A DNA stretch of 64,000 nucleotides from the NCBI GenBank assembly GCA_964436815.1, contig CAYTER010000001.1:11630-75629 (forward strand), in the 5' to 3' direction. The notes beneath the pieces are model-generated. The model was not told the DNA's origin. It was given only the letters and a program-made list of their open reading frames with translations, and did no database searches. The position numbers and the translations under genes are program-made. This document shows, one piece after another, positions 22,565-46,917 of the stretch (positions are counted from its first letter, which is position 1; each line of letters opens with the position of its first letter). The stretch comes from an uncultured Syntrophomonadaceae bacterium. Its GTDB lineage: Bacteria; Bacillota; Dethiobacteria; DTU022.

Positions 22565-23335
22565 ATGCCCGTTGCAGGAATAGATATCGGTTCCCTGACA
22601 GCTGAAGTTGTAATTATGGAAAAGAATCAAATTATCAGCTATGTAATCCGGCCGACAGGGGCTAACAGCAAGAGGGCTGCTGAAATGGCAATGCAGGAGG
22701 CCCTTTCTGCGGCAGCTCTGAAAATATCTGATTTAAGCTCCATTGTAGCTACAGGGTACGGACGGATCAGTATCGATTTTGCCGACAAAAGGATTACCGA
22801 AATTACCTGCCACGGACGGGGCGCTTTTTACTGGGATCCGGCTGTCAGAACAGTTATTGACATCGGGGGGCAGGACAGCAAGGTAATCTGCCTGGCCGAG
22901 CATGGCCGGGTAACCGACTTTGCCATGAACGATAAATGCGCGGCCGGAACCGGACGGTTTTTAGAGGTAATGGCCGGTGCTCTTGAAGTTGAAATCGGCC
23001 AACTTGCCGCTCTCAGCGAAAGCGCTCGCAATTCAGTTTCAATCAGCAGTATGTGTACCGTGTTTGCCGAATCTGAAGTGGTATCACTCATCGCCCAGGG
23101 TCTGCCACGGGAAGACATTGCCAGCGGTTTGCACCAGTCGATTGCTGATCGCACGGCTGGCCTGATCCGCAGGGTCGGTTTAAATGAGAAGGTCATGATG
23201 ACCGGTGGGGTAGCGCGCAACCATGCAGTTGTCAAGGCGCTCAACGAAAAACTGAAGACTGTCATTATAGTCCCTGATGAGCCGCAGATTGCCGGGGCTC
23301 TTGGCGCTGCGTTACTGGCGCAGGAAGATATTTGA
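22565..23335 (+). CDS. BadF/BadG/BcrA/BcrD-type ATPase; (R)-2-hydroxyacyl-CoA dehydratase activase-like (HgdC-like)
   Basis: 256 aa. N-terminal GIDIGS actin-like ATPase fold, at the length of a component-A activase. No dehydratase partner lies nearby. Confidence 0.65.
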   Translation: MPVAGIDIGSLTAEVVIMEKNQIISYVIRPTGANSKRAAEMAMQEALSAAALKISDLSSIVATGYGRISIDFADKRITEITCHGRGAFYWDPAVRTVIDIGGQDSKVICLAEHGRVTDFAMNDKCAAGTGRFLEVMAGALEVEIGQLAALSESARNSVSISSMCTVFAESEVVSLIAQGLPREDIASGLHQSIADRTAGLIRRVGLNEKVMMTGGVARNHAVVKALNEKLKTVIIVPDEPQIAGALGAALLAQEDI

Positions 23336-23923: not shown

Positions 23924-24874
23924 TTAGACTAACTCTCCAAAGTTAACCAGCTGGTTATCGCCATTATGATCAATAACAACCAGTTTTCCTTCAGCGGTAA
24001 GGCGATCAGCCACCCCGGTCAGGGTCCCGCCCGCCCACTTGACAGTTACTTGATGGCCAAGGGTTATGTTGTGCTTCTCCCAGTTCCGGTGAAATGGCTT
24101 AAACCCCTGATCTTCAAAAATCCTGTAGGCTTTAAGCAGTTCCCGGTGCAGATTGACAAAAAGATCTGACCGGTCAAATCTATGACCGCTTTCGATAAAA
24201 AGTGAGGTTGCCGAATTTTTTAATGCAGGCGGAAAATCTGCTGCTGCCTGGTTAACATTAAGGCCAATGCCGACCACCAGATAATCAATTCGATCCGGCT
24301 CACCTTTAATTTCAGTCAGGATACCGGCAACTTTTTTGCTGCCTAGCAACAGATCATTAGGCCATTTTATTTGAACCGGAAGTTGATAATCTGCTCGAAG
24401 ATATTCAGCTATTACCGCAGCTGTTACCAGGGTTAGAGGGTTGGCTTCTGCCGGGTTCAAATAAGCCGGACGGAGGAGAATTGAAAACCAGAGTCCGCTT
24501 GCCGGCGGTGAAAACCAGTTTCTGTCCAGGCGGCCCCTGCCGGAGGTCTGGTGATCGGCAACGACTGTGGTCAGGGTGGGAGCGTGATCTTCAGCCAGGC
24601 GGCGGGCGGTATAATTAGTCGAATCGGTAACCGGCAGGTAAACAATCTGGCTGCCCTTTGTCACCCTTTCATCAAGCAGGTCCGGCTCATTATCCAGCCG
24701 GTAGCCGTAGTTCGAGCGGGCGGTTATCCGGTAGCCTGCAGATCTTAAGGCGCCGATCTGTTTCCAGACAGCTGAGCGGCTGATTCCGAAAATGCTGCCG
24801 ATCTCTGATCCGGAAATCGGTTTTTCCCGATTGGCTTGCAAGATTTCCAGGATTTTTCTGCTGGTGTTGTCCAA
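23924..24874 (-). CDS. birA: Bifunctional biotin-protein ligase / biotin operon repressor
   Basis: 316 aa. N-terminal winged HTH, a BPL catalytic domain (GRGR motif) and a C-terminal SH3-like domain. Directly precedes bioY. Confidence 0.9.
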   Translation of the reverse strand: MDNTSRKILEILQANREKPISGSEIGSIFGISRSAVWKQIGALRSAGYRITARSNYGYRLDNEPDLLDERVTKGSQIVYLPVTDSTNYTARRLAEDHAPTLTTVVADHQTSGRGRLDRNWFSPPASGLWFSILLRPAYLNPAEANPLTLVTAAVIAEYLRADYQLPVQIKWPNDLLLGSKKVAGILTEIKGEPDRIDYLVVGIGLNVNQAAADFPPALKNSATSLFIESGHRFDRSDLFVNLHRELLKAYRIFEDQGFKPFHRNWEKHNITLGHQVTVKWAGGTLTGVADRLTAEGKLVVIDHNGDNQLVNFGELV

Positions 24875-24923
24875 ACTTTCACCTTATTTCAGATTTTGAT
24901 AGAATGATATAAAGAGTTGGAGT

Positions 24924-24962
24924 AATTGTCAACCATATGTCCACTAATTATGGTTGACAATT
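24924..24962. promoter_or_regulatory. BirA operator (bioO)
   Basis: Perfect inverted repeat AATTGTCAACCATA-N11-TATGGTTGACAATT about 50 nt upstream of birA. It matches the TGTnAACC/GGTTnACA type BirA sites. Confidence 0.6.
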
Positions 24963-25003
24963 AAACCTAAAAGTTTGCTGAAACCTATTTATTAATTATC
25001 AAC

Positions 25004-25036
25004 AGGAAAAAGGCGCAGTTTGTATTTAACTGCGCC
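25004..25036 (-). terminator. Terminator-like hairpin (minus-strand orientation) between birA and the EBP gene
   Basis: GGCGCAGT, a 9-nt loop, ACTGCGCC. A T-run follows only on the minus strand (TTTTTCC). Possible insulator of the birA promoter region. Confidence 0.3.
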
Positions 25037-25163
25037 CATCAAATATATATAAAAAGAGGGGGTCAACTCGATCATATTATAACGCCCTTATATTACAGGA
25101 ATATTACAAACAGGTTGTTTTTGGATTACAAAAGAATTTATGATCCTGCGGGAGATATGAATT

Positions 25164-26930
25164 ATGCTAGAGGCAAAAGATCTGATGTTGAAAAAGCCTT
25201 CGAGGGTTGCCGCCCAAGAACCTGCAGCTATTGCGCTTAATCGGTTGTTAACAGCGGAAGGGCAAGTATTGGCGGTTTTCGAGGGTAAAGCTTACCGGGG
25301 TTTAATTTCTGCAGAGTCAGTTATCAGATTATTGGATAACCAAAAGGAACTCAACCAGGGAAAAGCTGTTGATCTGGTTGTTGCTGACTGCCCTGTGGTG
25401 TCACCGCATGCTAATCTTGATCAGATTACCGGGCTGTTAAAGCGCTGCCCGGTTCTTGCTGTCATATCAGGTCAGGGTAAACTGGCTGGTGTCATTACCA
25501 ACTGCTTGCTGGCAATTAGACTGGCCACAAAGGTCGAAGAGCTTGAAAAAGAGTTTGATGCCGCGATCAGTTTTTCATCGGACGAGATTTTAATTGCTGA
25601 TCGTGAGGGAAGAATCCTCAGGGCTAACCGCCATTTTGAGGAGAATTTCGGGGTTAAGCTTGAAACTGTCCTCGGGAAGAATGTAGATGAACTGGAAAAG
25701 AAAAAAATATTTTTTCCTTCGGTTACCAGGCTTGTCCTCGATAAAAAGGATGTCCAGACGGTCATTCAATCCCGCCGTGACGGCCGCAAACTGCTGGCGA
25801 CAGGAACCCCGGTTTTTAATGAGGACGGTTCGGTTTTCAGGGTTGTGGTTAACACCCGGGATATTACTAAACTTAATAACCTGAAGCAAAAGCTGGAAGA
25901 AGCGGAGCTGCTGAAAAACAGGTACCAGCAGGAGCTGGTTGAACTGCGGCAGGGCTTCCTCGGCAGCAGCGACCTGATAGCCGAAAGTCAGGCTATGGTG
26001 GAACTGTTAGCGATTGCGCAAAAAATCGCTGCTGTTGATTCCACGGTACTCCTCACCGGGGAATCCGGGGTGGGCAAAGGGATGATTGCCCGCTATATCC
26101 ATAACTGCAGCCCCCGGGCCAATAATCCCTTTACGGTAGTCAACTGCGGGGCGATTCCTGAAAATTTGCTGGAGAGCGAGCTTTTTGGCTATGCCGGAGG
26201 GGCTTTTACCGGAGCTCTGAAAGAAGGGAAAATCGGTAAACTGGAGCTGGCAAACAAAGGCACGCTTTTCCTTGACGAAATAGCCGACCTGCCGCTTAAC
26301 CTGCAGGTCAAGCTCCTGCATGTGATCCAGGAAGGTGTAATCAGCAGGATCGGTAGCTCCAAAGAGATTAAGCTTAATTTGCGTTTTATCGCTGCTACCA
26401 ATCGTGACATATCTGCGCTGGTTGAAGAAGGTAAGTTTCGGGAAGACCTCTACTTCAGGCTTGATGTAATTCCGCTCCTGGTTCCCCCATTAAGAGAACG
26501 CCGGGAGGATATTATTAAACTGACCGCGGCTTTCTTAGATAAACTGAATCGCCGTTATCAGAAGCATAAGTCCTTTACCAAAGAAGCGCTGGCTGTCCTT
26601 AAAACTTACAGTTGGCCTGGAAACGTGCGGGAGCTGGAAAACCTGATTGAGCGGATGATCATTGTCGTTGAAGCTGACGAGATCGGACCGGAAAGACTGC
26701 CCCGTCACCTGCATGGTGGTGGGGGCACAAGTGCTTTAATGCCTCAGCAGGTCGGGCTGCAACCATTAAAGCAAGCACTGCAGGACCTGGAAACAGAGCT
26801 TTTGAAAAAAGCCCTTGACCGTTACCGGACAACGTATGAAATAGCAGCTGCCCTGCAGATCGATCAGTCCACAGTTGTCCGTAAACTCAAAAAGTACAAG
26901 TTGACTGCGATCGATCGAAACCCCACTTAA
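25164..26930 (+). CDS. Sigma-54-dependent transcriptional activator with N-terminal CBS pair and PAS domain
   Basis: 588 aa. Contains a Walker A motif (GESGVGKG), the GAFTGA motif (GGAFTGAL) and a C-terminal Fis-type HTH. Confidence 0.85.
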   Translation: MLEAKDLMLKKPSRVAAQEPAAIALNRLLTAEGQVLAVFEGKAYRGLISAESVIRLLDNQKELNQGKAVDLVVADCPVVSPHANLDQITGLLKRCPVLAVISGQGKLAGVITNCLLAIRLATKVEELEKEFDAAISFSSDEILIADREGRILRANRHFEENFGVKLETVLGKNVDELEKKKIFFPSVTRLVLDKKDVQTVIQSRRDGRKLLATGTPVFNEDGSVFRVVVNTRDITKLNNLKQKLEEAELLKNRYQQELVELRQGFLGSSDLIAESQAMVELLAIAQKIAAVDSTVLLTGESGVGKGMIARYIHNCSPRANNPFTVVNCGAIPENLLESELFGYAGGAFTGALKEGKIGKLELANKGTLFLDEIADLPLNLQVKLLHVIQEGVISRIGSSKEIKLNLRFIAATNRDISALVEEGKFREDLYFRLDVIPLLVPPLRERREDIIKLTAAFLDKLNRRYQKHKSFTKEALAVLKTYSWPGNVRELENLIERMIIVVEADEIGPERLPRHLHGGGGTSALMPQQVGLQPLKQALQDLETELLKKALDRYRTTYEIAAALQIDQSTVVRKLKKYKLTAIDRNPT

Positions 26931-26950
26931 GTCCTGCTAATGCAACAATG

Positions 26951-27085
26951 CATCATTAATGCAATGCTGCATCAAATCTTTGCTCTTCCTCTAAAAAAAT
27001 AGCGGCATTTTATTCTTTCGGAGCCCCGATTTTGCCTAAACAACGCGAATCTGATTAATGATGTCAAATATTGGCATCATTAATT
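26951..27085. promoter_or_regulatory. Candidate upstream activator sites: three copies of CATCATTAATG
   Basis: Copies at 26951-26961, 27055-27063 (reverse orientation) and 27075-27085. The last two form the inverted repeat ATTAATGATG-N11-CATCATTAAT just upstream of the sigma-54 promoter. Confidence 0.35.
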
Positions 27086-27090
27086 GTGAA

Positions 27091-27106
27091 TGGCATCACT
27101 ATTGCT
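27091..27106 (+). promoter_or_regulatory. Sigma-54 (-24/-12) promoter
   Basis: TGGCATcactaTTGCT matches TGGCAC-N5-TTGCW. It lies about 40 nt upstream of the aminotransferase start at 27147. Confidence 0.6.
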
Positions 27107-27146
27107 ATATATAGATTCAGCAATAAAAATGAAAGGGGTTAAGCGA

Positions 27147-28496
27147 ATGAGTAAAAGCAGCAAACAGCCGGGATTGAGCGGACCCGGACCCAAATCGGAA
27201 GAACTCCTGAAAATGCGTGACGAAAACGTTGCCCGCGGTATATCTTACGTGTTGCCTGTTTTTGTTGAAGAGGCCAAGGGTGCGCTGATCAGGGATATTG
27301 ACGGCAATGAATATATTGATTTTGCCACCGGTATTGGGGTGGTCAATTTCGGCCATAACCATCCCGCGGTTGTCGATGCCATTAAAAAACAGGCCGACCA
27401 GTACTTGCATACCTGTTTCATGGTTGCTATGTACGAGCCTTATGTCAGACTGGCGGCAGCCTTGAACGAGATGACTCCTGGCAGGTTTGCGAAGAAAACC
27501 GCATTCTTTAACAGCGGCGCCGAAGCAGTTGAAAATGCTGTGAAGCTGGCCAGGCGGTTTACAAAGAAAACGGCAATCGTAGCCTTGGAATGTGCTTTCC
27601 ATGGCCGGACATTAATGACCATGACGCTTACTTCAAAAGTAAAACCCTATAAATACGGTTACGGGCCTTTCGCTCCCGATGTTTACAAGATCCCTGCGGC
27701 TTATTGCTACCGCTGCCGTTTTGGGTTAACTTATCCTTCCTGCGACCTGTACTGCGCCCGTTATCTTGAACAGTTCTTTGCTGTCGAGTGTACAGCTGAT
27801 AACGTTGCGGCTGTGATCGCCGAGCCGGTCCAGGGAGAAGGGGGATTCATTGTTCCCCCGGAAGGATACTTTAAAGTTCTCCATGAAATTTGCAAGAAGC
27901 ACGAAGTCCTTTTAATCGCTGATGAAATCCAGTCGGGCTTTTACCGGACCGGAACTCCCCTGGCCAGTTTTTATTATGGCATTGAACCGGACTTGATCAC
28001 CATGGCCAAGTCCCTGGCCGGCGGTGTGCCGATCAGCGCCCTGACCGGGAGAGCTGAAGTAATGGATGCCGCCGGTCCGGGTGAAATTGGTGGAACATAT
28101 GGTGGAAACCCGATGGGCTGTGCTGCAGCGCTGGCCGTGCTTGAGGTCGCCAAAAAAGAAAAGCTGGCTGAACAGGCCAAGGAAACAGCTAAAATTACCG
28201 CCGAAAGATTGGACAGCCTGGCCGCCAAATATGAAATGATCGGCGAACACCGTGGACTGGGAGCGATGCGGGCGATCGAGATTGTCAAAGACCGCCACAG
28301 TAAAACCCCTGATCCTGATAAAGCCAAGGCAATTATTAAACGCTGCCACGAACAGGGTTTGATCATTATAACTGCCGGTATCTTCAGTAATGTGATCAGG
28401 CTGCTGATGCCGGTTAACATCCCCTCAGAGCTGTTGGCGAAAGGTTTGGATATTCTTGAAGAAGCAATTGCTGCGGAAGAAGGAGGCAGCCGTTAA
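27147..28496 (+). CDS. Class-III PLP aminotransferase, 4-aminobutyrate/omega-amino-acid:2-oxoglutarate transaminase-like
   Basis: About 450 aa. PLP lysine context (TMAKSLAGG) and the GabT-like fold. The track start at 27090 lies upstream of the sigma-54 promoter, so ATG 27147 is preferred. Confidence 0.8.
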   Translation: MSKSSKQPGLSGPGPKSEELLKMRDENVARGISYVLPVFVEEAKGALIRDIDGNEYIDFATGIGVVNFGHNHPAVVDAIKKQADQYLHTCFMVAMYEPYVRLAAALNEMTPGRFAKKTAFFNSGAEAVENAVKLARRFTKKTAIVALECAFHGRTLMTMTLTSKVKPYKYGYGPFAPDVYKIPAAYCYRCRFGLTYPSCDLYCARYLEQFFAVECTADNVAAVIAEPVQGEGGFIVPPEGYFKVLHEICKKHEVLLIADEIQSGFYRTGTPLASFYYGIEPDLITMAKSLAGGVPISALTGRAEVMDAAGPGEIGGTYGGNPMGCAAALAVLEVAKKEKLAEQAKETAKITAERLDSLAAKYEMIGEHRGLGAMRAIEIVKDRHSKTPDPDKAKAIIKRCHEQGLIIITAGIFSNVIRLLMPVNIPSELLAKGLDILEEAIAAEEGGSR

Positions 28497-30269
28497 TTGT
28501 ATTCAACTTTTGGCAAGCTCCTGATTGTTGATTTGACTAAATCGGATATCAGCGAAAGGGAGCTGGATGAGCATATCTTTCTTGAATACCTTGGAGGTAA
28601 AGGGTTAGGCAGCTATCTGCTGATGAAAATGCTCCCACCGGGTATTGATCCCCTTTCTCCTGAGAATGTGCTGATCTTCACCACCGGACCGGCAACTGAC
28701 AGCCCCCTGGCCCCGGCATCCCGCTTTGGCGTTTTCAGCAAATCGCCGGCCACCGGTCTCTATGCTGAATCATACAGTGGTGGTCATTTGCCGCCGGTGA
28801 TGAAAAGGACCGGTTATGATGCGATTGCCATTACTGGTGCTGCCCGGAAGCCCTGTTACATTTCTATCTCTGAAGAAGGTGTTAATTTTTATGATGCCGG
28901 CGCTGTCTGGGGCAGGGAATCATATGAAGCTGAAGAGGAGATCATCAAAGCGGTCGGTGTTAAGGGTTCACAAGCTCTGGTAATCGGACCTGCCGGTGAG
29001 CGGAAGCTTGCCTTTGCCTGCATTAAAAATAACCGTTGGCGTAGCGCCGGCAGGACCGGGCTCGGGGCTGTAATGGGTTCGAAAATGCTCAAAGGGATCG
29101 TCTTCAGCGGTGGTGCCAAAGCCGCGCCGGCTGATGAAGAAGGTTTAAAGAACTGGACCCGCAACTTTTTTCTGAATTACAAAGATTCACCTGCCGCCAA
29201 ACTTTATCAGGAAAAGGGCACCCCGGCCCTGGTAGCCGTTACCAATAATGCCGGTTGTTTTCCAACCCGTTACTGGTCAGCGGGAAAATTGGATGGTTGG
29301 GAGAAAATCAGCGCCGACTATATGAAAAATGAAATGAAAACAAAATCGCGGGGCTGTTATCGCTGCTTTTTCGCCTGTGGAAAGCTGACCACTGTTGAAC
29401 AGGGTCGGCACAGGGATCTGACCATTGAGGGCCCTGAATTTGAAACGATTTATGCTTTCGGAGGTTTATGCTGTCTGCCGGAAATGGAGGAAATTGTTTA
29501 TCTCAACGATCTGTGTGATCGATGGGGGATTGACACGATCAGCGCCGGTAATATTGCCGCTTTTGCCATTGAAGCGGGCTTAAGAGGCAAACTAAAGCAG
29601 GCTCCCCGTTATGGTGATGCCGATTCAATAGCCGGCTTCTTGTTGAGCGTGGTGGAGGGCAGGGATGAAGGAGTAATTTTTACCCAGGGAATCAGGGAAG
29701 CTGCCAGGCAGTTGGCGATGGAGGATTTTGCAATCCACGTTAAAGGGCTTGAACCTGCCGGCTATGATCCCCGGGTCTTAAAGGGGATGGGGCTCGCTTA
29801 TGCCACTTCGGACCGGGGAGCCTGCCACCTGCGGACAACATTTTACAAGCCAGAACTTAGCGGTCTCATTGATCCGGCCCAGGTTGAAGGCAAGGCCAGA
29901 ATGTTTATCGATTTTGAGGATCGCCTGAATATCTATGATTGCCTGATTTTCTGCCGCTTTTACCGGGATATTATTCACTGGGAAGAGCTGATTAAAGTAC
30001 TTTACCTGCTGACCGGTAACCGCTACAGTGTCGCTGATTTACATTCAATCTCGGCCAGAATTCAAAATCTGACCAGGTTGTTTAACTTGCGTGAAGGGGC
30101 ATCGCGGTCCGACGATCTATTACCGCAGCGGTTGATGAGCGAGCCGATAAACGAAAAGCGGGATCTGATCACCAGTAAAGAGTTGGAAGCGATGCTGGGC
30201 GACTATTACCTGCTGCGAGGCTGGGATGAAAATGGAATTCCCCGAAACGGGTTCAATCAAATAAAGTAA
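28497..30269 (+). CDS. Tungsten-containing aldehyde:ferredoxin oxidoreductase (AOR family)
   Basis: 590 aa. Typical AOR N-terminus (MYSTFGKLLIVDL) with a TTG start abutting the upstream stop. Contains the AOR cluster/pterin-binding regions. Confidence 0.85.
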   Translation: MYSTFGKLLIVDLTKSDISERELDEHIFLEYLGGKGLGSYLLMKMLPPGIDPLSPENVLIFTTGPATDSPLAPASRFGVFSKSPATGLYAESYSGGHLPPVMKRTGYDAIAITGAARKPCYISISEEGVNFYDAGAVWGRESYEAEEEIIKAVGVKGSQALVIGPAGERKLAFACIKNNRWRSAGRTGLGAVMGSKMLKGIVFSGGAKAAPADEEGLKNWTRNFFLNYKDSPAAKLYQEKGTPALVAVTNNAGCFPTRYWSAGKLDGWEKISADYMKNEMKTKSRGCYRCFFACGKLTTVEQGRHRDLTIEGPEFETIYAFGGLCCLPEMEEIVYLNDLCDRWGIDTISAGNIAAFAIEAGLRGKLKQAPRYGDADSIAGFLLSVVEGRDEGVIFTQGIREAARQLAMEDFAIHVKGLEPAGYDPRVLKGMGLAYATSDRGACHLRTTFYKPELSGLIDPAQVEGKARMFIDFEDRLNIYDCLIFCRFYRDIIHWEELIKVLYLLTGNRYSVADLHSISARIQNLTRLFNLREGASRSDDLLPQRLMSEPINEKRDLITSKELEAMLGDYYLLRGWDENGIPRNGFNQIK

Positions 30270-30291
30270 TCAAATCTAAGGAGGATATAAA

Positions 30292-31590
30292 ATGTCTGTG
30301 GAACTTGAAAAGGTTAAGAAGGAAGACAACATTCTAACAGCTACCCTTGCTATGATGAAGCAGTCTGCTGAATTAGCCGGGCTTTCCCCGGAAGTTTACG
30401 AACACTTGAGAATACCGTCACGCTTTGTGGAGGTTTCTATCCCTGTTGAAATGGATGACGGCACCACCAAGGTGTTTAGCGGTTACCGGTCCCAGCATAA
30501 CAACGTCTTTGGACCCTATAAGGGAGGGATCCGTTTTCACCATTTAGTGGATGTTGATGAAGTTAAAGCGCTTTCCATGCTGATGACCCTGAAGTGTTCC
30601 CTGGTCGGTGTTCCTTTCGGAGGCGGTAAGGGCGCAGTTGTCTGCGATCCTTATCATATGTCCATGAAAGAAAAAGAACGTTTGACCCGCGGTTATGTCA
30701 GGGCTCTCGGTTCCATTCTCGGACCGGAAACCGATATCCCTGCCCCGGATGTTGCCACTGATTCGCAGGTAATGGCCTGGATCGCCGATGAATACAGCAG
30801 TATTATGCGCGAACCTTCCTTTGGGGTAGTTACCGGTAAACCTTTGGCAGTCGGTGGTTGTGTGGGCAGGCAGGAAGCTACAGGACGCGGTTGTTTTTTT
30901 GTCACAAAAGAGGCGGCAAAAAGTTTTAAGATCCCCTTCGATCATGCCCGTATTGTGATCCAGGGTTTTGGTAACGTGGGCAGCAATGCCGCCATTCTAT
31001 TTGCCGAAGCCGGCTCACCGGTTGTCGCGATCAGCGATGTCAGTGGTGGTATCTATAACGAAAAAGGGATTGACATTTATAAATTGCTCCAGCATGTTGA
31101 AGAAACCGGTTTTGTTAAAGGATTTCCCGGTTGCGAAGAGATCACCAACACTGAGCTGTTAGCCCTTGACTGCGATGTCCTGATTCCGGCTGCCCTTGAA
31201 AATCAGCTTACTGGAGTTAATGCTGACCAGGTAAAGGCTAAGGTTGTAGTGGAAGCAGCAAACGGGCCCACCACCCCGGAAGCCGATCAGATCCTGAAAG
31301 ATAAAAATGTGCTGGTAGTCCCTGATATTTTAGCCAACAGCGGTGGGGTTACCGTATCTTACTTCGAGTGGGTCCAGAATAACTATGGGTTCCGCTGGGA
31401 TTTGGAGACTGTCAACCGTCGTCTGGAAGAGAAAATGACCGAAGCTTTTAAAATGGTCTATAGTTTTTACTGTGAAAAATGTGTTGGTTCTGATATGCGG
31501 ACCGGTGCTTACATGTATTCAATCCAGCGATTGGCTGAAGCGATGCACTATCGAGGCTGGTTGCGTAATGGGACCCAAAAGAAAAAATAG
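30292..31590 (+). CDS. gdh: Glutamate dehydrogenase (Glu/Leu/Phe/Val dehydrogenase family)
   Basis: 432 aa. Active-site Lys motif (VPFGGGKGAV) and a Rossmann fold (GFGNVG). Confidence 0.9.
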   Translation: MSVELEKVKKEDNILTATLAMMKQSAELAGLSPEVYEHLRIPSRFVEVSIPVEMDDGTTKVFSGYRSQHNNVFGPYKGGIRFHHLVDVDEVKALSMLMTLKCSLVGVPFGGGKGAVVCDPYHMSMKEKERLTRGYVRALGSILGPETDIPAPDVATDSQVMAWIADEYSSIMREPSFGVVTGKPLAVGGCVGRQEATGRGCFFVTKEAAKSFKIPFDHARIVIQGFGNVGSNAAILFAEAGSPVVAISDVSGGIYNEKGIDIYKLLQHVEETGFVKGFPGCEEITNTELLALDCDVLIPAALENQLTGVNADQVKAKVVVEAANGPTTPEADQILKDKNVLVVPDILANSGGVTVSYFEWVQNNYGFRWDLETVNRRLEEKMTEAFKMVYSFYCEKCVGSDMRTGAYMYSIQRLAEAMHYRGWLRNGTQKKK

Positions 31591-31607
31591 CGAACAACCT
31601 GGTTGCT

Positions 31608-31650
31608 GCGGCGGAACAGGCTTGACCTGTCCCGCCGCGGCGTGATTTTG
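31608..31650 (+). terminator. Possible terminator after gdh
   Basis: GC-rich hairpin GCGGCGG...CCGCCGC with an inner ACAGG/CCTGT stem. The T-run after it is weak (GATTTTG). Confidence 0.3.
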
Positions 31651-31825
31651 CATGCCGGATTTGTCTCTTCGCAGCAGATCAGTGTTTCTTGAGAGAGAAA
31701 TTTGTTTTATTTTTAATTGGTGAAAAATTTTAAGCTGTATTTTGGTTGCTTTCTGTCACTTACTGTCGGTTGTTGATTAGAATCATAATCAGTGGTTTAA
31801 TAGAACAGGGAGGGGATCTGTACTT

Positions 31826-32062
31826 TTGACCCGGACCGAGAAAATTGAATCAACTGCGAGCCTGAGTATTAATGGTGATTGGTGCAAGGGTTGCGGGATA
31901 TGTGTAGCTTTCTGTCCAAGGGAAGCTCTTTTTTTGAATAATGCTGGGAAAGCTGAGAAAGACAGCGATAAGTGCAAAGCCTGTGGAGTGTGTGTGCTTT
32001 TTTGCCCTGATTTTGCCCTTAGCGTAACCAGGGGGAGGATATCTGTGAATGCCGGAAGCTAA
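31826..32062 (+). CDS. 2-oxoacid:ferredoxin oxidoreductase delta subunit (2x[4Fe-4S] ferredoxin)
   Basis: 78 aa. Two CxxCxxCxxxCP motifs. TTG start. Overlaps the alpha-subunit start. Confidence 0.7.
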   Translation: MTRTEKIESTASLSINGDWCKGCGICVAFCPREALFLNNAGKAEKDSDKCKACGVCVLFCPDFALSVTRGRISVNAGS

Positions 32063-33179
32063 ACCGATTTTGATGCAGGGTAATGAAGCCTGCGCGATGG
32101 GAGCGATCAACGCCGGTGTGCGGTTTTATGCCGGTTATCCTATTACCCCTTCAACCGAAGTAGCTGAAATAATGGCCGCAAAATTGCCGGAAATCGGTGG
32201 AGTTTTCATTCAGATGGAGGACGAAATTGCCAGCATGGCTGCGGTGATCGGCGCCTCGATCGGTGGGATGCGAACACTTACTGCTACGAGCGGACCGGGT
32301 TTTTCATTAAAGCAGGAGAACCTCGGGTATGCCATCATGGCTGAAATCCCCTGCGTAGTGGTTAATGTCCAGCGAATGGGGCCGAGTACCGGAGTGCCGA
32401 CTGCGCCGGCCCAGGGTGATGTGATGCAGTCCCGCTGGGGAACGCACGGTGATCACCCAATCATTGTTTTTTCACCGGCATCGGTCTATGAAACTTATTA
32501 TTTAACTATTGCAGCGGTAAACCTGAGCCAGAAGCTGAGACAACCGGTAATTATGCTGCTGGATGAAGTGATCGGGCATATGCGGGAGAAGGTTTTAATC
32601 CCTGAACCCGGTAAGCTTCTGGTGGAAAAATCAAGCGATCAGGTTCCCGCAGACTGGAAACCCTATGATGAGAAAGGGTTAACTCCCCTGGTACCTTTTG
32701 GATTTGGCCACTATTATCATGTAACCGGTCTTTTTCATGATCAGTATGGTTTTCCCACCGGGGATCCTCCCCAGGTTGAGCGGGCGCTCGATCGGATGCA
32801 TGATAAGCTTGATAAATATCGCGATGAGATTATCCTGACTAATTATATCGGTCACAAAGAACCAAGAGTGGCAATAGTAACCTATGGCTGTACGGTCAGG
32901 TCAGCCCGCGCGGTCGTAAAAAAAGCATATTGGCAGAACCGCCTGCCGGTTGGGTTGCTCAGTCTGCAAACTATCTGGCCTTTTCCCGCCCGTGAGGTTG
33001 AAGCTCTGGCCAGGCAGGCAGATGTCATTATCGTCCCGGAGATGAACATGGGGCAGATTGTCGGCGAAGTTGAGCGCTATGCCTGCGGCCAGGCCAAGGT
33101 AATTCCGCTCAACCGCTATGACGGGGAAATGATCACTCCGGATCAAATATCTGAGCTTATCGGGAGGTGGCTGTCATAG
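32049..33179 (+). CDS. 2-oxoacid:ferredoxin oxidoreductase alpha subunit (likely 2-oxoglutarate)
   Basis: 376 aa. KorA/PorA-type domains I-II. Confidence 0.8.
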   Translation: MPEAKPILMQGNEACAMGAINAGVRFYAGYPITPSTEVAEIMAAKLPEIGGVFIQMEDEIASMAAVIGASIGGMRTLTATSGPGFSLKQENLGYAIMAEIPCVVVNVQRMGPSTGVPTAPAQGDVMQSRWGTHGDHPIIVFSPASVYETYYLTIAAVNLSQKLRQPVIMLLDEVIGHMREKVLIPEPGKLLVEKSSDQVPADWKPYDEKGLTPLVPFGFGHYYHVTGLFHDQYGFPTGDPPQVERALDRMHDKLDKYRDEIILTNYIGHKEPRVAIVTYGCTVRSARAVVKKAYWQNRLPVGLLSLQTIWPFPAREVEALARQADVIIVPEMNMGQIVGEVERYACGQAKVIPLNRYDGEMITPDQISELIGRWLS

Positions 33180-33982
33180 AACAGCTAACCCAGGATTTTT
33201 TACGCACTAAAAAACTGCCGCATATCTGGTGTCCGGGTTGTGGTAACGGTATTGTCACCGCTGCCCTGGTCAGGGCTATTGAAAGGGCTGGCTATGATCA
33301 GCGCGAGGTTGTTATTGTTTCCGGGATCGGTTGCTCCTCACGGGCGGCCGGTTATTTAAACTTTAATACCCTTCATACCACGCACGGTCGGGCGCTGGCT
33401 TTTGCCACGGGTCTTAAAATGGCCAGGCCGGAACTGACTCTTTTCGTGATCATGGGTGATGGCGACTGCAGCGCTATCGGCGGCAACCATTTTATCCATT
33501 CCGCCCGAAGAAATATTGATCTCAATGCCATCGTCATCAACAACCATATTTATGGCATGACCGGAGGCCAGCATTCACCGCTCACACCTACCGGTAAAAA
33601 GGCTACAACCGCTCCCGGGGGAACGCTGGAAAGGGCCTTTGATCTGCTTGCTTTGGCCAAAGGAGCCGGTGCGACATTCGGAGCTAGGGGTAACGCTGCG
33701 CAGCCGCGTCAGCTCGAACAGCTCATCGCCAGAGCGGCAAAACATAAAGGGTTTTCCGTGGTTGAGGCTTTGTCTCCCTGCCCGATTGCTTATGGCCGGA
33801 GGAATAAACTCGGTGGGGCGGTTGAAATGCTGCGTGATATGAAAGATACCAGTATTGCTGTTGAACGCGCCGCAGAAATGGATGAAACAGAACTGGAAGG
33901 TAAAACTTTAAACGGTGTCCTATTTTCGATCGATGCTCCGGAATTTTCCGCGGAGTACCACCGGATGATCAATAAAGAATAA
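33167..33982 (+). CDS. 2-oxoacid:ferredoxin oxidoreductase beta subunit (TPP-binding)
   Basis: 271 aa. CPGCGNG...GDG motifs of the TPP/[4Fe-4S] beta subunit. Confidence 0.85.
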   Translation: MAVIEQLTQDFLRTKKLPHIWCPGCGNGIVTAALVRAIERAGYDQREVVIVSGIGCSSRAAGYLNFNTLHTTHGRALAFATGLKMARPELTLFVIMGDGDCSAIGGNHFIHSARRNIDLNAIVINNHIYGMTGGQHSPLTPTGKKATTAPGGTLERAFDLLALAKGAGATFGARGNAAQPRQLEQLIARAAKHKGFSVVEALSPCPIAYGRRNKLGGAVEMLRDMKDTSIAVERAAEMDETELEGKTLNGVLFSIDAPEFSAEYHRMINKE

Positions 33983-34004
33983 GGTTGATTACGGGGGACG
34001 AATA

Positions 34005-34583
34005 ATGACTAAAAGGCAGGAAATATTGCTTACCGGAGCCGGAGGTCAGGGCTTGATTCTGGCTTCAATTGTTCTGGCTGCAGCGGCAGTAAACGACAAT
34101 AAAAATGTGGTTCAGACTCAGTCATACGGTCCGGAAGCGCGGGGTGGGGCCAGCATGGCCGGAGTGATTATTGATGTTGACACCATCGAGTATCCGAAAG
34201 TAACCAAACCAACGGTCTTGCTTTGTATGAACCAGGCATCATATAATAAGTACCTGCCAAAGGTTGAACCGGGATGTGTGATCATCACTGATTCCACTTT
34301 TGTCAGCGGCCCGTTCAAAGATGAATTGCAGATAAAATCGCTGCCGATTACAAAGATGGCCCGGGAAATTTTAAAGCGCGAAGTGGTTGCCAACATGCTA
34401 GCTCTTGGTGTTATAAACGCTGCAACCGGGTTAATCGATCGCCAAATCTTCCGGGATAGCATCTACAGCATGGCACCTAAGGGAAGTGGTGAGCTCAATC
34501 AGGAAGCCTTTGATCTGGGCTACCGCCTTTACGGGGAAGGACCGGAACAGCTCAGCAGAGTATCAGCTCAAAACCCCCGGTAA
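34005..34583 (+). CDS. 2-oxoacid:ferredoxin oxidoreductase gamma subunit
   Basis: 192 aa. Gamma-subunit fold (GAGGQG motif). Confidence 0.75.
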   Translation: MTKRQEILLTGAGGQGLILASIVLAAAAVNDNKNVVQTQSYGPEARGGASMAGVIIDVDTIEYPKVTKPTVLLCMNQASYNKYLPKVEPGCVIITDSTFVSGPFKDELQIKSLPITKMAREILKREVVANMLALGVINAATGLIDRQIFRDSIYSMAPKGSGELNQEAFDLGYRLYGEGPEQLSRVSAQNPR

Positions 34584-35838
34584 AATAGTTTATAGCTATC
34601 TGTTTTTAGCGGCTGTTATCGGCGAGCTTGCTTTGGCCGGCTACATCGGCCCTTTCCGGTTTTCAGTCGCATTTATTTTACTGGTTTATACCCTGCTTAG
34701 CGTGGATAAGTTTCAGATCCTGCCTTTTGCTTTACTGATTTCCTTTTCAACCTATCTGCTCCGCCTGGTAATAACAAACTTTCTTCCATTATCACCTGAA
34801 ATGTATGACTTTATCTTAACCAGTCAGTTTTCCTTTCCAGCTGGTATTGTATTGCTGGCAGTTCTTCTAGCCCTTAGACCGATCAGGAAGCGAACAGGCG
34901 ATTTTTCACTCGCCCTGCTTTTTTATCTTATTTTGGTTATCGCCATCTCTATTCTGGTTGAAGCGCTGGTCAGGCTTTTAACCTGGGAGGTAGTAAGGGG
35001 TTTTAATATTCTGTTTTTACTATTTGCATCTATTTTGCACCTGCTTCCAATAATCGCCCTGCTTCAGATCAGCTTTTTTCAGCGGGGCACCATTATTGAA
35101 GAACAGCAGCGCATTTTAAATGAGAAAATGCTGATCATCGCTTCAGAGCTTTACGATGAGCAGTTTTACATGCAAAAATCGGTGGAAAATATAGAGAATA
35201 TTATGGCTAAGAGTTATACTTTACATAAAAAATTAAAAGATCTTAAATTGGCTGACCGGAATTTGGAAAGCGATGCCCTCGAGGTCGCCGAAGAGGTGCA
35301 TGAGGTCAAAAAAGATACCGTGCGGGTTCTTGCCGGCATCGGTGAAGTGATCACTATTCGCAGGGACAAATCAGTGATGAACCTGAACGCAGTATTTGAT
35401 CTGGTCATAAAAACTAACCGCAGTTATGCGCAAAGCCTTGAGAAGAATGTCGATATAATTTTGGAGTCGGACGCCGATATTGCAGTGACACAGATCTATC
35501 CCCTGCTGGCTATCCTGAACAACCTGGTCTCCAACGCAGTCGAAGCAATCATCGACGAGGGAATGATCAGCCTGAAAGCCAAAAGAAGCAAATACACCTT
35601 AAGGATCAGTGTCTGCGATAACGGCGAACCGATCCGGGAAAGTAACCGGACGCTGATCTTTGAGCCCGGGTTCACTACCAAATTTAACGCTGACGGCGTT
35701 CCCTCAACCGGTATAGGCTTGTCCTATATCAAGGGTCTGGTGGAAAATTTCAAAGGCAGGGTGTTTTTTACGGCTGATGGCAGCAGTAAATGTTTTATTA
35801 TCATCTTACCTTTAAAAAGTTTAACCGGGGGTTTATGA
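34486..35838 (+). CDS. Membrane sensor histidine kinase (GlnK/YcbA-like)
   Basis: Multi-TM N-terminal half, a phospho-acceptor His region (EEVHEVKKD) and a GHKL ATPase domain (DNGEPI...GIGLSY). The start is uncertain: the first ATG overlaps korC by about 100 nt. Confidence 0.6.
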   Translation: MVSSIRKPLIWATAFTGKDRNSSAEYQLKTPGKIVYSYLFLAAVIGELALAGYIGPFRFSVAFILLVYTLLSVDKFQILPFALLISFSTYLLRLVITNFLPLSPEMYDFILTSQFSFPAGIVLLAVLLALRPIRKRTGDFSLALLFYLILVIAISILVEALVRLLTWEVVRGFNILFLLFASILHLLPIIALLQISFFQRGTIIEEQQRILNEKMLIIASELYDEQFYMQKSVENIENIMAKSYTLHKKLKDLKLADRNLESDALEVAEEVHEVKKDTVRVLAGIGEVITIRRDKSVMNLNAVFDLVIKTNRSYAQSLEKNVDIILESDADIAVTQIYPLLAILNNLVSNAVEAIIDEGMISLKAKRSKYTLRISVCDNGEPIRESNRTLIFEPGFTTKFNADGVPSTGIGLSYIKGLVENFKGRVFFTADGSSKCFIIILPLKSLTGGL

Positions 35839-36764
35839 TGGATTTCTCCTTCTTTATTATCGATGACGACCTGGCCTGCAGAAAGATTTTAGGTCAGATT
35901 ATCGAAGACGAAAACTTAGGTGAAGTGATCGGCGAACTACCCGATGGGCGTGGCAATGTTGTCGGCACGGTTCTTTACCACCAACCGGATGTATTGCTGA
36001 TAGATCTGCTGATGCCTGGAAAAGACGGGATTGAGGTAGTTGAGCAGCTGAGAGCCAGGGACTATAAAGGTAAAATCGTGATGATTTCCCAGGTAGAGAA
36101 AAAGGAGATGGTTGCCCAGGCTTATGCTGCCGGCATAGAATTTTATATTAACAAACCCATTAACCGGGTTGAGGTTATTTCCGTGATTAGAAATGTGACA
36201 GACAGGATTAAAATGGAACTGTCTTTTGAACAGATGCGGGATTCGCTTGATGCCCTGGACCGGATTGGCAGCCTGCGTCGTTCTTACCGGCGAAGCGAAA
36301 TGCAGGTCATGGATCGTGATACAATCAGGGAAAAAACCCGAGAATTACTGGCCGACCTGGGCTTAATTGGCGAGCCCGGGAGCCATGATTTGATCCAGAT
36401 TGTCCTTTTTCTGAACAGTGTTCCGGATATTGAAAAATATTTGGGAGAATACCGGCACCTCAAGGATTTATATCAGGCGGTCCATGAAACCTACCTTCGC
36501 GAAGAAGAAAAGCAAAGCGATGTGCGGGCGATTGAACAGCGGGTGCGTCGCGCTGTAAAGCAGGCCATGGAGCATATTGCTGCCCTTGGACTGGAGGATT
36601 ATAATAATCCTATCTTCGAGCGGTATGGCCCTAAATTTTTCGACTTTAACGAGCTGCGCCTGAAAATGAAGGAATTGGAAAGTAATACAGAAATCCAGTC
36701 TAAAACCCGGGTCAGTATTAGGCAATTTATCAATGCTCTCTATGGGGAGATTAAGAAAATATAA
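35835..36764 (+). CDS. Response regulator with REC domain and YcbB/GlnL-type C-terminal domain
   Basis: REC domain (IIDDD...DLLMPGKDG). The ATGA start/stop overlap with the kinase gene indicates coupling. The about 190-aa C-terminal domain resembles the GlnL family. Confidence 0.6.
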   Translation: MMDFSFFIIDDDLACRKILGQIIEDENLGEVIGELPDGRGNVVGTVLYHQPDVLLIDLLMPGKDGIEVVEQLRARDYKGKIVMISQVEKKEMVAQAYAAGIEFYINKPINRVEVISVIRNVTDRIKMELSFEQMRDSLDALDRIGSLRRSYRRSEMQVMDRDTIREKTRELLADLGLIGEPGSHDLIQIVLFLNSVPDIEKYLGEYRHLKDLYQAVHETYLREEEKQSDVRAIEQRVRRAVKQAMEHIAALGLEDYNNPIFERYGPKFFDFNELRLKMKELESNTEIQSKTRVSIRQFINALYGEIKKI

Positions 36765-36774
36765 GGAGCCGAAG

Positions 36775-38088
36775 ATGAACAGTGAACTGAAATTTGATTA
36801 TACACTGGCTGAACCCTGGGTTAGTGAGGCTGATCTGGCCGGCCTTGCTCCGGAATTGAACAAGGCCCACCGTTACCTGCATCAGCAGGAAGGGTTGGGC
36901 AGTGAATATACAGGATGGGTTAGCTGGCCTGAACGGTATGACCGCCCTGAGTTTGGAAGGATCCTGGAGACTGCTCAGCAGATCAGGGAAATTGCAGATG
37001 CTTTCATTGTGATCGGCATTGGCGGTTCATACCTCGGTGCCCGCTCAGCGATCGACCTGCTGCAACCGGTTTTCCGGAATCAGTTGCCGCCGGAAGAGAG
37101 AAAAGGCCCGGAGATCTATTTTGCCGGAAATGGAATCAGCGCAGCGTATTTAGACTCCTTGCTTCGCCTGCTTGATCATAAAAGGGAGATCTACATCAAT
37201 ATTATTTCAAAATCGGGTACGACCCTGGAACCGGCTTTAGCTTTTAGAATTTTACGCCGCTACCTCGAAGAACGTTATGGAAAGGAAGATGCGAGAAAGA
37301 GGATTATCGTTACCACAGATGGCACAAAGGGCCCTCTGCGTGAACTGGCTGTGCGCGAAAACCTTACCGCTTTTAACGTGCCGGATGACATTGGCGGTCG
37401 TTATTCCGTTTTAACTCCCGTCGGGCTCCTGCCGCTGGCGGTCGCCGGTATAGACCTGCGCCAGGTAATGGATGGGGCAACCAAGGCTTACCTCGCTTAC
37501 AGCCGTGAGAAAATCGAAGATAATGATGCTTACATCTACGCGGCAATCAGAAATATCCTTTACCGCAAAGGAAGAACAATGGAAATCCTGGCTGCCTACG
37601 AACCGTCCTTCATCCAGTTTGCTGAATGGCTGAAGCAGCTTTTCGGTGAAAGCGAAGGTAAAGAACATCAAGGGCTATTTCCGGCAGCGGTTAATTTTAC
37701 AACCGATCTTCATTCCCTGGGACAGTACATTCAGGAAGGGTTGCGCAATTTCTTTATGACAACTCTCTGGGTGGAAAATTCATCCTCCGGACTTTCGGTC
37801 CCTGCCTTAAATGACAACAGTGACGGTCTAGATTACCTGGCCGGAACCAGGCTGCACAGCATAAATGAACAGGCCTGCCGGGGGACGATGCTGGCTCACC
37901 ACGAGGGTGGGGTGCCAAACCTCAGGCTATCTATCGCGAAAATCGATGCTTTCAGTTACGGCATGCTGGTCTATTTCTTTGAAAAGGCCTGTGGTATGAG
38001 CGGTTACCTGCTGGGCGTTAACCCTTTTAACCAGCCCGGTGTTGAAGCTTATAAAAATAAAGTATTTACCCTGCTGCGCTCTCTTTAA
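36775..38088 (+). CDS. pgi: Glucose-6-phosphate isomerase
   Basis: About 437 aa. SIS domain motifs (IGIGGSYLGARS, SKSGTT). AGGAG RBS 8 nt before ATG 36775. Confidence 0.9.
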   Translation: MNSELKFDYTLAEPWVSEADLAGLAPELNKAHRYLHQQEGLGSEYTGWVSWPERYDRPEFGRILETAQQIREIADAFIVIGIGGSYLGARSAIDLLQPVFRNQLPPEERKGPEIYFAGNGISAAYLDSLLRLLDHKREIYINIISKSGTTLEPALAFRILRRYLEERYGKEDARKRIIVTTDGTKGPLRELAVRENLTAFNVPDDIGGRYSVLTPVGLLPLAVAGIDLRQVMDGATKAYLAYSREKIEDNDAYIYAAIRNILYRKGRTMEILAAYEPSFIQFAEWLKQLFGESEGKEHQGLFPAAVNFTTDLHSLGQYIQEGLRNFFMTTLWVENSSSGLSVPALNDNSDGLDYLAGTRLHSINEQACRGTMLAHHEGGVPNLRLSIAKIDAFSYGMLVYFFEKACGMSGYLLGVNPFNQPGVEAYKNKVFTLLRSL

Positions 38089-43747: not shown

Positions 43748-43776
43748 TTCTTTCACGGAGGAGGGAAGCGATCGAA

Positions 43777-45574: not shown

Positions 45575-45577
45575 TCA

Positions 45578-46207: not shown

Positions 46208-46253
46208 GTTGGCTGCTCGATTTTGAGCCTGGCAACCTGAGCAGGAGGATAAC

Positions 46254-46835: not shown

Positions 46836-46917
46836 CGTTATTATTCAGGCAGAGCAAGGATATGATCATTTAAGCAGTTTTAAGTTTGGACAAAATTTTT
46901 AAGAGGTGAAGTGAATC

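Follow-up and report, generated by a model that had tools for sequence, protein, structure and literature searches.

Fermentation of 4-aminobutyrate (GABA) by Clostridium aminobutyricum (MetaCyc 4-aminobutanoate degradation V) couples a GABA aminotransferase to glutamate dehydrogenase. In Bacillus thuringiensis, gabT is controlled by sigma-54 together with GabR, a regulator of PAS-AAA+-HTH architecture, and is induced by GABA and by succinic semialdehyde (PMC4279683, PMC4428206). Control by sigma-54 and a regulator, AorR, has also been predicted for the aor-moaD genes of acetogenic Clostridium (PMC6615313), aor encoding an enzyme of the aldehyde:ferredoxin oxidoreductase (AOR) family, and glutaric semialdehyde derived from amino acids has been proposed as the native substrate of the FOR enzyme of Pyrococcus furiosus (PMC12096430). 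Here we describe a locus from an uncultured Syntrophomonadaceae bacterium (assembly GCA_964436815.1, contig CAYTER010000001.1; the whole 64-kb stretch that was analysed is referred to as the window) in which genes for a GabT-type aminotransferase, an AOR-family oxidoreductase and glutamate dehydrogenase (gdh) lie downstream of a gene for a sigma-54 enhancer-binding protein (EBP). We favour, with moderate confidence, the view that these genes form an operon for the breakdown of an omega-amino acid, with GABA the likeliest candidate, and that the AOR in it would replace the semialdehyde dehydrogenase GabD.

A predicted sigma-54-controlled operon

The locus occupies positions 25164-31650 of the plus strand in the order EBP gene, 216-bp spacer, aminotransferase gene, AOR gene, gdh and hairpin, and the features described in an earlier note on this DNA all lie where it had placed them (Table 1). 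In particular, the TTG start codon of the AOR gene directly follows the TAA stop codon of the aminotransferase gene, with a GGAGG within the end of the latter, and gdh, which is preceded by an AGGAGG ribosome-binding site, begins after a gap of 22 nt; ribosome-binding sites are thus present within the operon. Note that the open reading frame of the aminotransferase opens mechanically at 27090, whereas translation most plausibly begins with the ATG at 27147, which GAAAGGGG precedes at 27131-27138. The GC-rich hairpin downstream of gdh was found at the same place in all seven loci that were aligned, and it likely ends the transcription unit. The locus is likely to comprise a sigma-54-controlled operon of three genes with the hairpin as its 3' limit.

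Table 1. Features of the locus, in window coordinates
Feature	Position	Strand	Basis
Sigma-54 EBP, 588 aa: CBS-like N-terminus, PAS, AAA+ with GAFTGA, C-terminal HTH	25164..26930	+	Pfam, motifs
Predicted enhancer (upstream activating sequence, UAS), two ATGCA-N4-TGCAT palindromes, 26940-26953 and 26959-26972	26940..26972	.	Conservation
Promoter-proximal inverted repeat ATTAATGATGTCAA-N3-TTGGCATCATTAAT	27054..27084	.	14-nt arms, 93% complementary
Predicted sigma-54 promoter, -24/-12, TGGCAT-CACTA-TTGCT (TGGCATCACTATTGCT)	27091..27106	+	Sole window match, conservation
Class-III GabT-type omega-aminotransferase, predicted to use 2-oxoglutarate, 449 aa	27147..28496	+	TIGR00700, residues
AOR-family oxidoreductase, tungsto-/molybdo-pterin [4Fe-4S], catalytic subunit only, 590 aa	28497..30269	+	AFOR domains
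Glutamate dehydrogenase, 432 aa	30292..31590	+	ELFV_dehydrog_N and ELFV_dehydrog
GC-rich hairpin (31605-31641) followed by UUUU	31605..31649	+	-36.8 kcal/mol, z-score -3.55
korDABC, 2-oxoglutarate/2-oxoacid:ferredoxin oxidoreductase	31826..34583	+	POR_N, TPP_enzyme_C and POR matches

The presence of a CBS-PAS-AAA+ EBP gene upstream of the operon, as proposed in the earlier note, was confirmed by Pfam matches to Sigma54_activat (6e-67), AAA_lid_14, PAS_9 and HTH_50 and by motifs in the translation, namely GAFTGA (in 'YAGGAFTGAL') and a Walker A sequence, GESGVGKG; the match to CBS is weak and lies below the cut-off. Orthologues with 63-73% identity occupy the same position in six related loci (L002, L004-L006, L008 and L018; loci are numbered with the prefix L throughout). 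The best NCBIfam match of the EBP, over its full length, was to PrdR (NF041552), at 452.9 bits versus a cut-off of 795. The EBP was ruled out as a PrdR orthologue both by this score and by its predicted target, which is the aminotransferase-AOR-gdh operon and not prd.

Within the 64 kb, TGGCAY-N5-TTGCW is matched only by the element TGGCATCACTATTGCT. Since 0.24 matches were expected and 19 of 100 shuffled sequences also contained at least one, this single match is not significant alone. It lies 56 nt before the ATG of the aminotransferase gene, and a -24/-12 element was present in all nine related genome loci whose sequence reaches upstream of that gene, at -53 to -68 from the start and between flanks that have diverged. 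Because the position is conserved despite the diverged surroundings we take the element to be real, which bears out the earlier description of it as a good one. A -24/-12 element was also found upstream of the aminotransferase gene in L012, L013, L016, L017, L018, L034, L078 and L095, and near-consensus sigma-54 promoters precede the moaD-AOR genes of L012 and the TRAP-AOR genes of L016. No sigma-70-like site was predicted in the spacer between the EBP and aminotransferase genes.

The predicted enhancer consists of two perfect ATGCA-N4-TGCAT palindromes, the only two in the 64 kb, which are arranged in tandem 19 bp apart and precede the -24 element by 151 and 132 bp. A tandem pair was found at -110 to -162 in all of the related Syntrophomonadaceae loci, and in four distant loci (L012, L016, L078 and L095) the same palindrome precedes sigma-54 promoters. 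The earlier note had described three copies of the motif CATCATTAATG in this region. These are indeed present, as one exact copy (26951) and two copies with one mismatch (27053, on the minus strand, and 27075), which are all the copies in the window and fall within 135 bp, but the motif was mis-specified: CATCATTAATG is the junction between the two palindromes, and it is the tandem ATGCA-N4-TGCAT that is conserved. The second and third copies, which are contained in the inverted repeat immediately upstream of the -24 element, are not conserved in related loci. The repeat itself has no counterpart at the corresponding position in L001-L009 and L018, so that its role, if it has any, would be lineage-specific. 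Taken together, a sigma-54 promoter with a positioned enhancer is conserved in about 17 loci, and these comparisons support the predicted sigma-54 control of the operon.

The three enzymes and the proposed pathway

The aminotransferase (Pfam Aminotran_3, E 1e-124) scores 546.0 bits against the GABA transaminase model TIGR00700, above the cut-off of 506.65, and falls below the cut-offs of two narrower GabT models (NF005376, 575.6 versus 676; NF004714, 554 versus 639). It also falls below those of argD (TIGR00707, 313.8 versus 410.05) and of ornithine aminotransferase (TIGR01885, 268.8 versus 378.4). Thus, with both of these scores under the cut-off and TIGR00700 passed, there is no support for identity as an acetylornithine or ornithine transaminase, a possibility that the earlier note had named as speaking against an omega-amino-acid role. 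The best relatives among solved structures are actinobacterial or Escherichia coli GabT or PuuE, at 375-439 bits; identity as a racemase or epimerase was ruled out, as relatives of that kind in the PDB reach 250-280 bits.

In an alignment of the window aminotransferase with E. coli GabT (NC_000913.3) and six AOR-linked homologues, the E. coli residues I50, R141, E206, E211, D239, Q242, K268, T297 and R398 are invariant. From GabT structures we take K268 to be the PLP lysine, R141 to bind the omega-carboxylate, and R398 together with E211 to form the alpha-carboxylate gate for 2-oxoglutarate and glutamate. The conservation of R141 and of R398/E211 therefore suggests that the substrate should be a carboxylated amine and the acceptor 2-oxoglutarate. 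All of the AOR-linked GabT-like aminotransferases compared (window, L012, L017, L034, L048, L078 and L095) share a C-x2-C-x8-C-x3-C insert, which in the window is CYRCRFGLTYPSCDLYC (27690-27740, residues ~182-198) and may be a Zn or Fe-S site; the corresponding segment is free of cysteine in the actinobacterial GabT structures and deleted in E. coli GabT.

The AOR matches AFOR_N (231.6 bits) and AFOR_C (365.8 bits) over its full length. Its closest solved structures are 9mqx_D and 1aor, and by phmmer it is about equidistant from the AOR (340 bits) and the FOR (306 bits) of P. furiosus. With the TTG taken as the start, the first residues of this protein and of P. furiosus AOR align (residues 1-584 versus 1-594 of 1aor), C287, C290, C294 and C486 align with the [4Fe-4S] ligands C288, C291, C295 and C494, and E316 and H444 align with the catalytic Glu313 and His448; these cysteines, E316 and H444 are invariant in 25 homologues. 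No genes for AorA- or AorC-type partners are adjacent to the AOR gene, and for this reason soluble ferredoxin is the expected acceptor. The metal is presumably W or Mo, where the earlier note had named tungsten. In L007, the EBP gene is separated from the aminotransferase-AOR operon by ModABC genes and a gene for a ModE-like HTH protein, all in reverse orientation (L007:1058-3661), an insertion that fits a pterin-metal enzyme and does not discriminate W from Mo. Besides these genes, the MoaD gene of L012 is the one other indirect hint at the cofactor. This transporter, the sole linked metal transporter that was found, is ModA-type (TIGR01256) and not TupA or WtpA, and it was set aside as uninformative about the metal. 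A LapA/DivIC-domain gene is also inserted between EBP gene and operon in L007 and L008.

The best NCBIfam matches of the gdh product are all glutamate dehydrogenases (top E 3e-153). Its score is below the equivalog cut-offs (510.9 versus 750), and the next type, Trp dehydrogenase, reaches 57.7 bits.

Substrate, inducer, metal, electron acceptor and direction of flux are all inferred here from the sequence. In the pathway that we propose, the EBP would bind the tandem ATGCA-N4-TGCAT sites, ~130-150 bp upstream of the -24/-12 promoter, its CBS/PAS region would sense the substrate or the semialdehyde, and it would then activate sigma-54 RNA polymerase. The GabT-type aminotransferase would transfer the omega-amino group to 2-oxoglutarate, giving glutamate and a semialdehyde (succinate semialdehyde if the substrate is GABA), and glutamate dehydrogenase would regenerate 2-oxoglutarate with the release of ammonium and NAD(P)H. 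The stand-alone AOR would oxidise the semialdehyde to the dicarboxylate and reduce ferredoxin, in place of an NAD(P)-dependent GabD. The low-potential electrons could pass to Rnf, which is encoded in the window, or in two sister genomes to a complex with NuoE/NuoF-like and FdhA-type components; the link to Rnf is inferred from its presence in the same 64 kb. An omega-amino-acid route through these three enzymes had been put forward in the earlier note, and it is supported by the family scores, by the active sites and by the co-occurrence of the genes in shuffled arrangements described below. We favour GABA as the substrate because the aminotransferase passes TIGR00700, because of the kor neighbour, and because related AOR genes are found in C4 contexts.

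Gene neighbourhoods and alternative readings

The nearest genome records are metagenome-assembled genomes of uncultured Syntrophomonadaceae, with AOR identities of 73-85%. In the Syntrophomonadaceae loci the order EBP-aminotransferase-AOR is fixed, and where both enzyme genes are present the distance from the aminotransferase stop to the AOR start is 4-51 nt, mostly 4-11 nt. The gdh gene follows the AOR gene in L001, L002, L006, L008, L018 and L019, and is partial at the contig end in L007. Since this fixed order could be plain inheritance, the informative cases are distant loci, with AOR homologues at 51-59% identity, in which the genes are rearranged.

Several arrangements were found among these. 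In L012 and L013 the aminotransferase gene and gdh are divergent from an EBP-MoaD-AOR series, which is followed by PxpABC-like and biotin-carboxylase genes; in L016 the aminotransferase gene is divergent from genes for the EBP, the TRAP transporter DctPQM and the AOR. The EBP gene is divergent from aminotransferase-gdh-AOR in L017 and from aminotransferase-AOR-ADP-forming acyl-CoA synthetase in L095. In L034 the order is acyl-CoA synthetase, aminotransferase, AOR, ECH, thioesterase and EBP, whereas in L078 TRAP genes are divergent from an aminotransferase-AOR pair that converges on the EBP gene. L048 has TRAP, agmatine deiminase, aminotransferase and AOR genes in that order, L023 has AOR, aminotransferase and AMP-forming acyl-CoA synthetase genes, and L079 has genes for the EBP, glutamate dehydrogenase, aminotransferase, AOR and an APC-family amino-acid permease. 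In L100, from the cultured Desulfofundulus thermobenzoicus (WHYR01000001.1, about 43-55 kb), an aminotransferase-AOR pair converges on the EBP gene and is flanked by two gdh genes, a CN_hydrolase gene and a permease gene. In all, a GabT-like aminotransferase is encoded within 7 kb of the AOR gene in ~14 of the 76 metagenome loci whose AORs have 50-55% identity; by our own estimate, fewer than one of the 76 would be expected by chance. Because the shuffled loci share promoters and ATGCA-N4-TGCAT sites, we conclude that regulator, site, promoter type and enzyme set travel together. Co-occurrence in different gene orders thus supports a functional link, as read from the sequence, between aminotransferase, AOR and gdh, and the nearby TRAP and APC transporters and acyl-CoA synthetases are consistent with a route in which a carboxylated amine is taken up and the acid that is formed is activated.

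Related pairings were also observed with other members of the AOR family. L070 (8790-12998) and L071 (6743-10100) carry, downstream of the first pair, a second, unrelated pair of aminotransferase (35% identity) and AOR (31%) genes followed by gdh, and in L051 a GabT-like aminotransferase is paired with an AOR of 34% identity. The pairing seems to have arisen more than once.

A number of observations weigh against our reading. In the sister genomes L004 (7816-13623) and L005 (7816-13626), the AOR gene is followed not by gdh and kor but by genes for NuoE-like and NuoF-like proteins and a 1141-aa GltD-FdhA fusion. About 50 of the 76 metagenome loci with this AOR subfamily have no nearby aminotransferase gene; other contexts include an Fe-alcohol dehydrogenase with another sigma-54 EBP (D. 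nigrificans, L097), histidine kinases and CoA-transferases, and AOR homologues of D. kuznetsovii and C. pertinax lie among C4-dicarboxylate genes with no aminotransferase link. Moreover, some loci have neighbours suggestive of different entry substrates (agmatine deiminase in L048, CN_hydrolase in L100, ECH in L034 and the PxpABC-like genes in L012), and the sequence is compatible with 5-aminovalerate, beta-alanine or other carboxylated amines as well as with GABA. The operon in the window has no transporter gene of its own, and rpoN is not among the annotated window genes (no search for rpoN or ferredoxin genes was made outside the operon). Finally, the aminotransferase-linked AORs do not form one clade, as they fall into ~10 separate average-linkage clusters mixed with unlinked AORs, and a residue signature for them was rejected: a comparison of 17 non-redundant linked AORs with 22 unlinked ones with adequate flanks yielded four weak positions only (for example K270, in 71% of linked and 9% of unlinked AORs) and no convincing specificity determinant. 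With no single clade and no clear signature, the AOR resembles a versatile aldehyde oxidiser that was recruited rather than a dedicated semialdehyde enzyme; it looks like a generalist.

This last point bears on an alternative in which co-transcription is all that ties the AOR to its partners: it would scavenge a broad spectrum of aldehydes, the aminotransferase and glutamate dehydrogenase would serve the nitrogen metabolism of GABA and glutamate, and the semialdehyde would be handled elsewhere, for example by reduction to 4-hydroxybutyrate as in C. aminobutyricum. Characterised AORs are indeed broad-spectrum (PMC12096430), and the subfamily occurs in many unrelated contexts with no specificity signature. 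We nevertheless consider this improbable, given the tight spacing of aminotransferase and AOR genes in the Syntrophomonadaceae loci and the recurrence of the pair in independent orders and with other AOR subfamilies (L051; the second pair of L070 and L071). No gene for a 4-hydroxybutyrate dehydrogenase or dehydratase is found nearby. In L079 (2121-2731), what is left of a gene for an NAD(P)-type aldehyde dehydrogenase argues in the same direction. This remnant, located between a sigma-54-like promoter and the gdh-aminotransferase-AOR genes, joins ~145 N-terminal residues out of frame to ~45 C-terminal residues and lacks the catalytic core; it would match the expected look of a replaced GabD-like gene, with the caveat that it is found on a single metagenomic contig and an assembly artefact is possible.

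5-Aminovalerate, an end product of Stickland proline reduction and of lysine/cadaverine breakdown, is commonly accepted by GabT-family enzymes, and the same architecture and mechanism could serve this compound or another omega-amino acid such as beta-alanine. In the case of 5-aminovalerate the AOR would make glutarate, which would be converted to glutaryl-CoA and enter beta-oxidation-type metabolism. That the aminotransferase reaches the equivalog threshold for GABA transaminases, that the conserved neighbour korDABC yields succinyl-CoA, and that the D. kuznetsovii and C. pertinax homologues are found among C4-dicarboxylate genes all make this rather unlikely; neither a glutaryl-CoA dehydrogenase nor a decarboxylase gene was seen in the window, and the Pfam annotation of the 64 kb contains no genes for GabD, glutamate decarboxylase or glutaryl-CoA metabolism. 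On the other side stand the full-length similarity of the EBP to PrdR, the proline-reductase regulator, the ECH and thioesterase genes after the AOR gene in L034, the acyl-CoA synthetase genes in L023, L034 and L095, and the CN_hydrolase gene near the AOR gene of L100, whose family includes 5-aminopentanamidase. Beta-oxidation is a known trait of the host family, and the window itself encodes a thiolase as well as a 3-hydroxyacyl-CoA dehydrogenase/ECH fusion. The substrate proposed for P. furiosus FOR, glutaric semialdehyde, also speaks for 5-aminovalerate (PMC12096430).

The enzymes might also run in reverse, with the AOR reducing a dicarboxylate at the expense of reduced ferredoxin and the aminotransferase aminating the product with glutamate supplied by glutamate dehydrogenase, so that the operon would make an omega-amino acid. 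AORs of acetogens reduce acids (PMC6615313), and korDABC together with gdh could run in the glutamate-forming direction. We regard reverse flux as very improbable, however: control by sigma-54 and an EBP is typical of catabolic operons in Bacillota (PMC6615313, PMC4428206), in other loci the module is accompanied by transporters for uptake and by acyl-CoA synthetases, and there is no obvious need for the product.

Our preferred reading thus remains the oxidative degradation of an omega-amino acid, probably GABA. Whether several lineages of strict anaerobes (Syntrophomonadaceae, Desulfofundulus and other metagenomic lineages) share a ferredoxin-linked lower half of the GABA shunt, in which an AOR has displaced the semialdehyde dehydrogenase under the control of its own family of ATGCA-N4-TGCAT-binding EBPs, is a proposition that we judge to be evenly balanced.

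If the AOR does oxidise the semialdehyde, electrons would be released at the potential of ferredoxin and not of NAD(P)H, which would shift the energetics of degrading GABA or 5-aminovalerate anaerobically and would make the release of hydrogen or formate easier in syntrophic communities. For every omega-amino acid that is oxidised, one NAD(P)H and one reduced-ferredoxin pair would then result, the ratio that electron-confurcating hydrogenases and formate dehydrogenases take as input; because of this match, syntrophic amino-acid oxidation could become feasible. The NuoE/NuoF/GltD-FdhA genes of L004 and L005 encode the kind of module that consumes reduced ferredoxin and NAD(P)H, and may specify a formate dehydrogenase linked to both. 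For bacterial AORs, which are known mostly as broad-spectrum enzymes without assigned substrates, the module offers one subgroup a concrete and testable role, and D. thermobenzoicus, as a cultured carrier, is suited as a test organism. In addition, the EBP family, the ATGCA-N4-TGCAT enhancer and the -24/-12 promoter define a predicted regulon that can be used in the annotation of metagenomes.

Genomic setting and comparison with known systems

The korDABC genes, which the earlier note did not mention, are a conserved neighbour after gdh, and they are probably a separate unit with related metabolism; KorD is a 78-aa protein with 2x[4Fe-4S]. A sigma-54 promoter was looked for before korD and none was found. 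Just upstream of korD lies a conserved block of ~80 nt (31735-31800) that contains CTGTCACTT and the palindrome TGATTAGAATCATAATCA, and that is also present in L001, L002, L006, L008, L010 and L018; the block may hold the kor promoter and the operator of a regulator, and is not a sigma-54 element. Straight after korC, the window (34486-36764), L001, L008 and L018 have genes for a histidine kinase and a YcbB-type response regulator, a pair that we take to resemble the GlnK-GlnL glutamine sensor pair of B. subtilis. L002 and L006 lack the pair, and pgi directly follows kor.

The genes after gdh are, in order, korD, korABC, the histidine kinase and response regulator genes, pgi, valS, folC and the Rnf cluster, the last at 42422-47772 and thus ~11 kb downstream, past pgi, valS and folC. 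Upstream lie tig, clpP, clpX, lon, a GTPase gene, a gene for a lone acyl-CoA-dehydratase activase and divergent bioY-birA. By Pfam the remainder of the window holds housekeeping or unrelated genes (tig, clpPX, lon, birA/bioY, pgi, valS, folC, Rnf and a Mrp-like gene), and these neighbours on both sides point to an unremarkable stretch of a Bacillota chromosome. The activase (22565-23335) is of the BcrAD_BadFG type, as in acyl-CoA dehydratases and benzoyl-CoA reductases, and has no dehydratase partner nearby; a lone activase of this type also sits beside bioY-birA in L002, L004-L006 and L018. An Rfam scan of 24800-36900 found no riboswitch or leader RNA, the only match being at chance level (rli47, 21.5 bits versus a gathering score of 200).

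Two further observations concern the distant loci. In L099 (Desulfotomaculum nigrificans) and L101 a sigma-54 EBP gene is followed by genes for an Fe-alcohol dehydrogenase and an AOR of the same subfamily, an arrangement that would follow the same regulatory logic with an aldehyde supplied by the alcohol dehydrogenase instead of an aminotransferase. In L012 (7946-12465) PxpABC-like genes (CT_C_D, CT_A_B and LamB_YcsF) and genes for a biotin carboxyl carrier protein and a biotin carboxylase follow the AOR gene; we speculate that the PxpABC-like set acts on 5-oxoproline or a lactam and so feeds the aminotransferase.

Searches of open-access full-text papers turned up none that describes the pairing of an omega-aminotransferase with an AOR, together with an EBP family and enhancer of its own, in place of an NAD(P)-dependent dehydrogenase. 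Like the fermentation of C. aminobutyricum, the route proposed here is anaerobic and would couple a 2-oxoglutarate-dependent GABA aminotransferase to glutamate dehydrogenase, for net oxidative deamination. There, however, succinate semialdehyde is reduced to 4-hydroxybutyrate, which is dehydrated by way of 4-hydroxybutyryl-CoA, whereas here the 4-hydroxybutyrate genes are absent and an aldehyde-oxidising AOR is linked instead.

The AOR shares with the AOR and FOR of P. furiosus (1aor, 1b25) the fold family, the cofactor ligands and the stand-alone catalytic subunit, as well as, we expect, ferredoxin as the acceptor that those enzymes use. It is a distant relative of both in a bacterial host, and differs in that its gene is linked to those for an omega-aminotransferase and glutamate dehydrogenase, whereas for archaeal FOR the substrate is still a proposal; the module would be a bacterial parallel to the long-standing idea that archaeal FOR acts on C4-C6 semialdehydes. 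As with the Clostridium aor-moaD genes, an AOR gene lies under a predicted sigma-54 promoter with an EBP of its own, and MoaD is linked to it in L012 and L013. That AOR differs in being assigned to acid reduction for alcohol synthesis and in having no aminotransferase partner, and the UAS of AorR is TGT-N10-12-ACA and not ATGCA-N4-TGCAT.

The closest resemblance in regulation is to the gab cluster of B. thuringiensis (gabT-gabR-gabD), in which, as here, a gabT-type gene is preceded at ~55 nt by a -24/-12 promoter, a neighbouring gene specifies a one-component EBP of its own, equipped with a PAS sensor, and inverted-repeat sites, bound by GabR and predicted here, are repeated upstream; the lower half of the GABA shunt, which we propose here, is likewise encoded. 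The two differ in that the semialdehyde step of B. thuringiensis is carried out by the NAD(P)-dependent GabD, whereas the locus described here has an AOR-family pterin enzyme, and in that gdh is part of the operon here. Moreover, the EBP is larger than GabR, with an extra CBS-like N-terminus (the likeness being drawn from architecture), and its enhancer lies some 130 to 150 bp upstream of the -24 element and not beside the promoter. Control by sigma-54 is thus already known for gabT and for aor separately, and since all components and the regulatory logic have precedent, the locus is an extension of known biology, not a departure from it.

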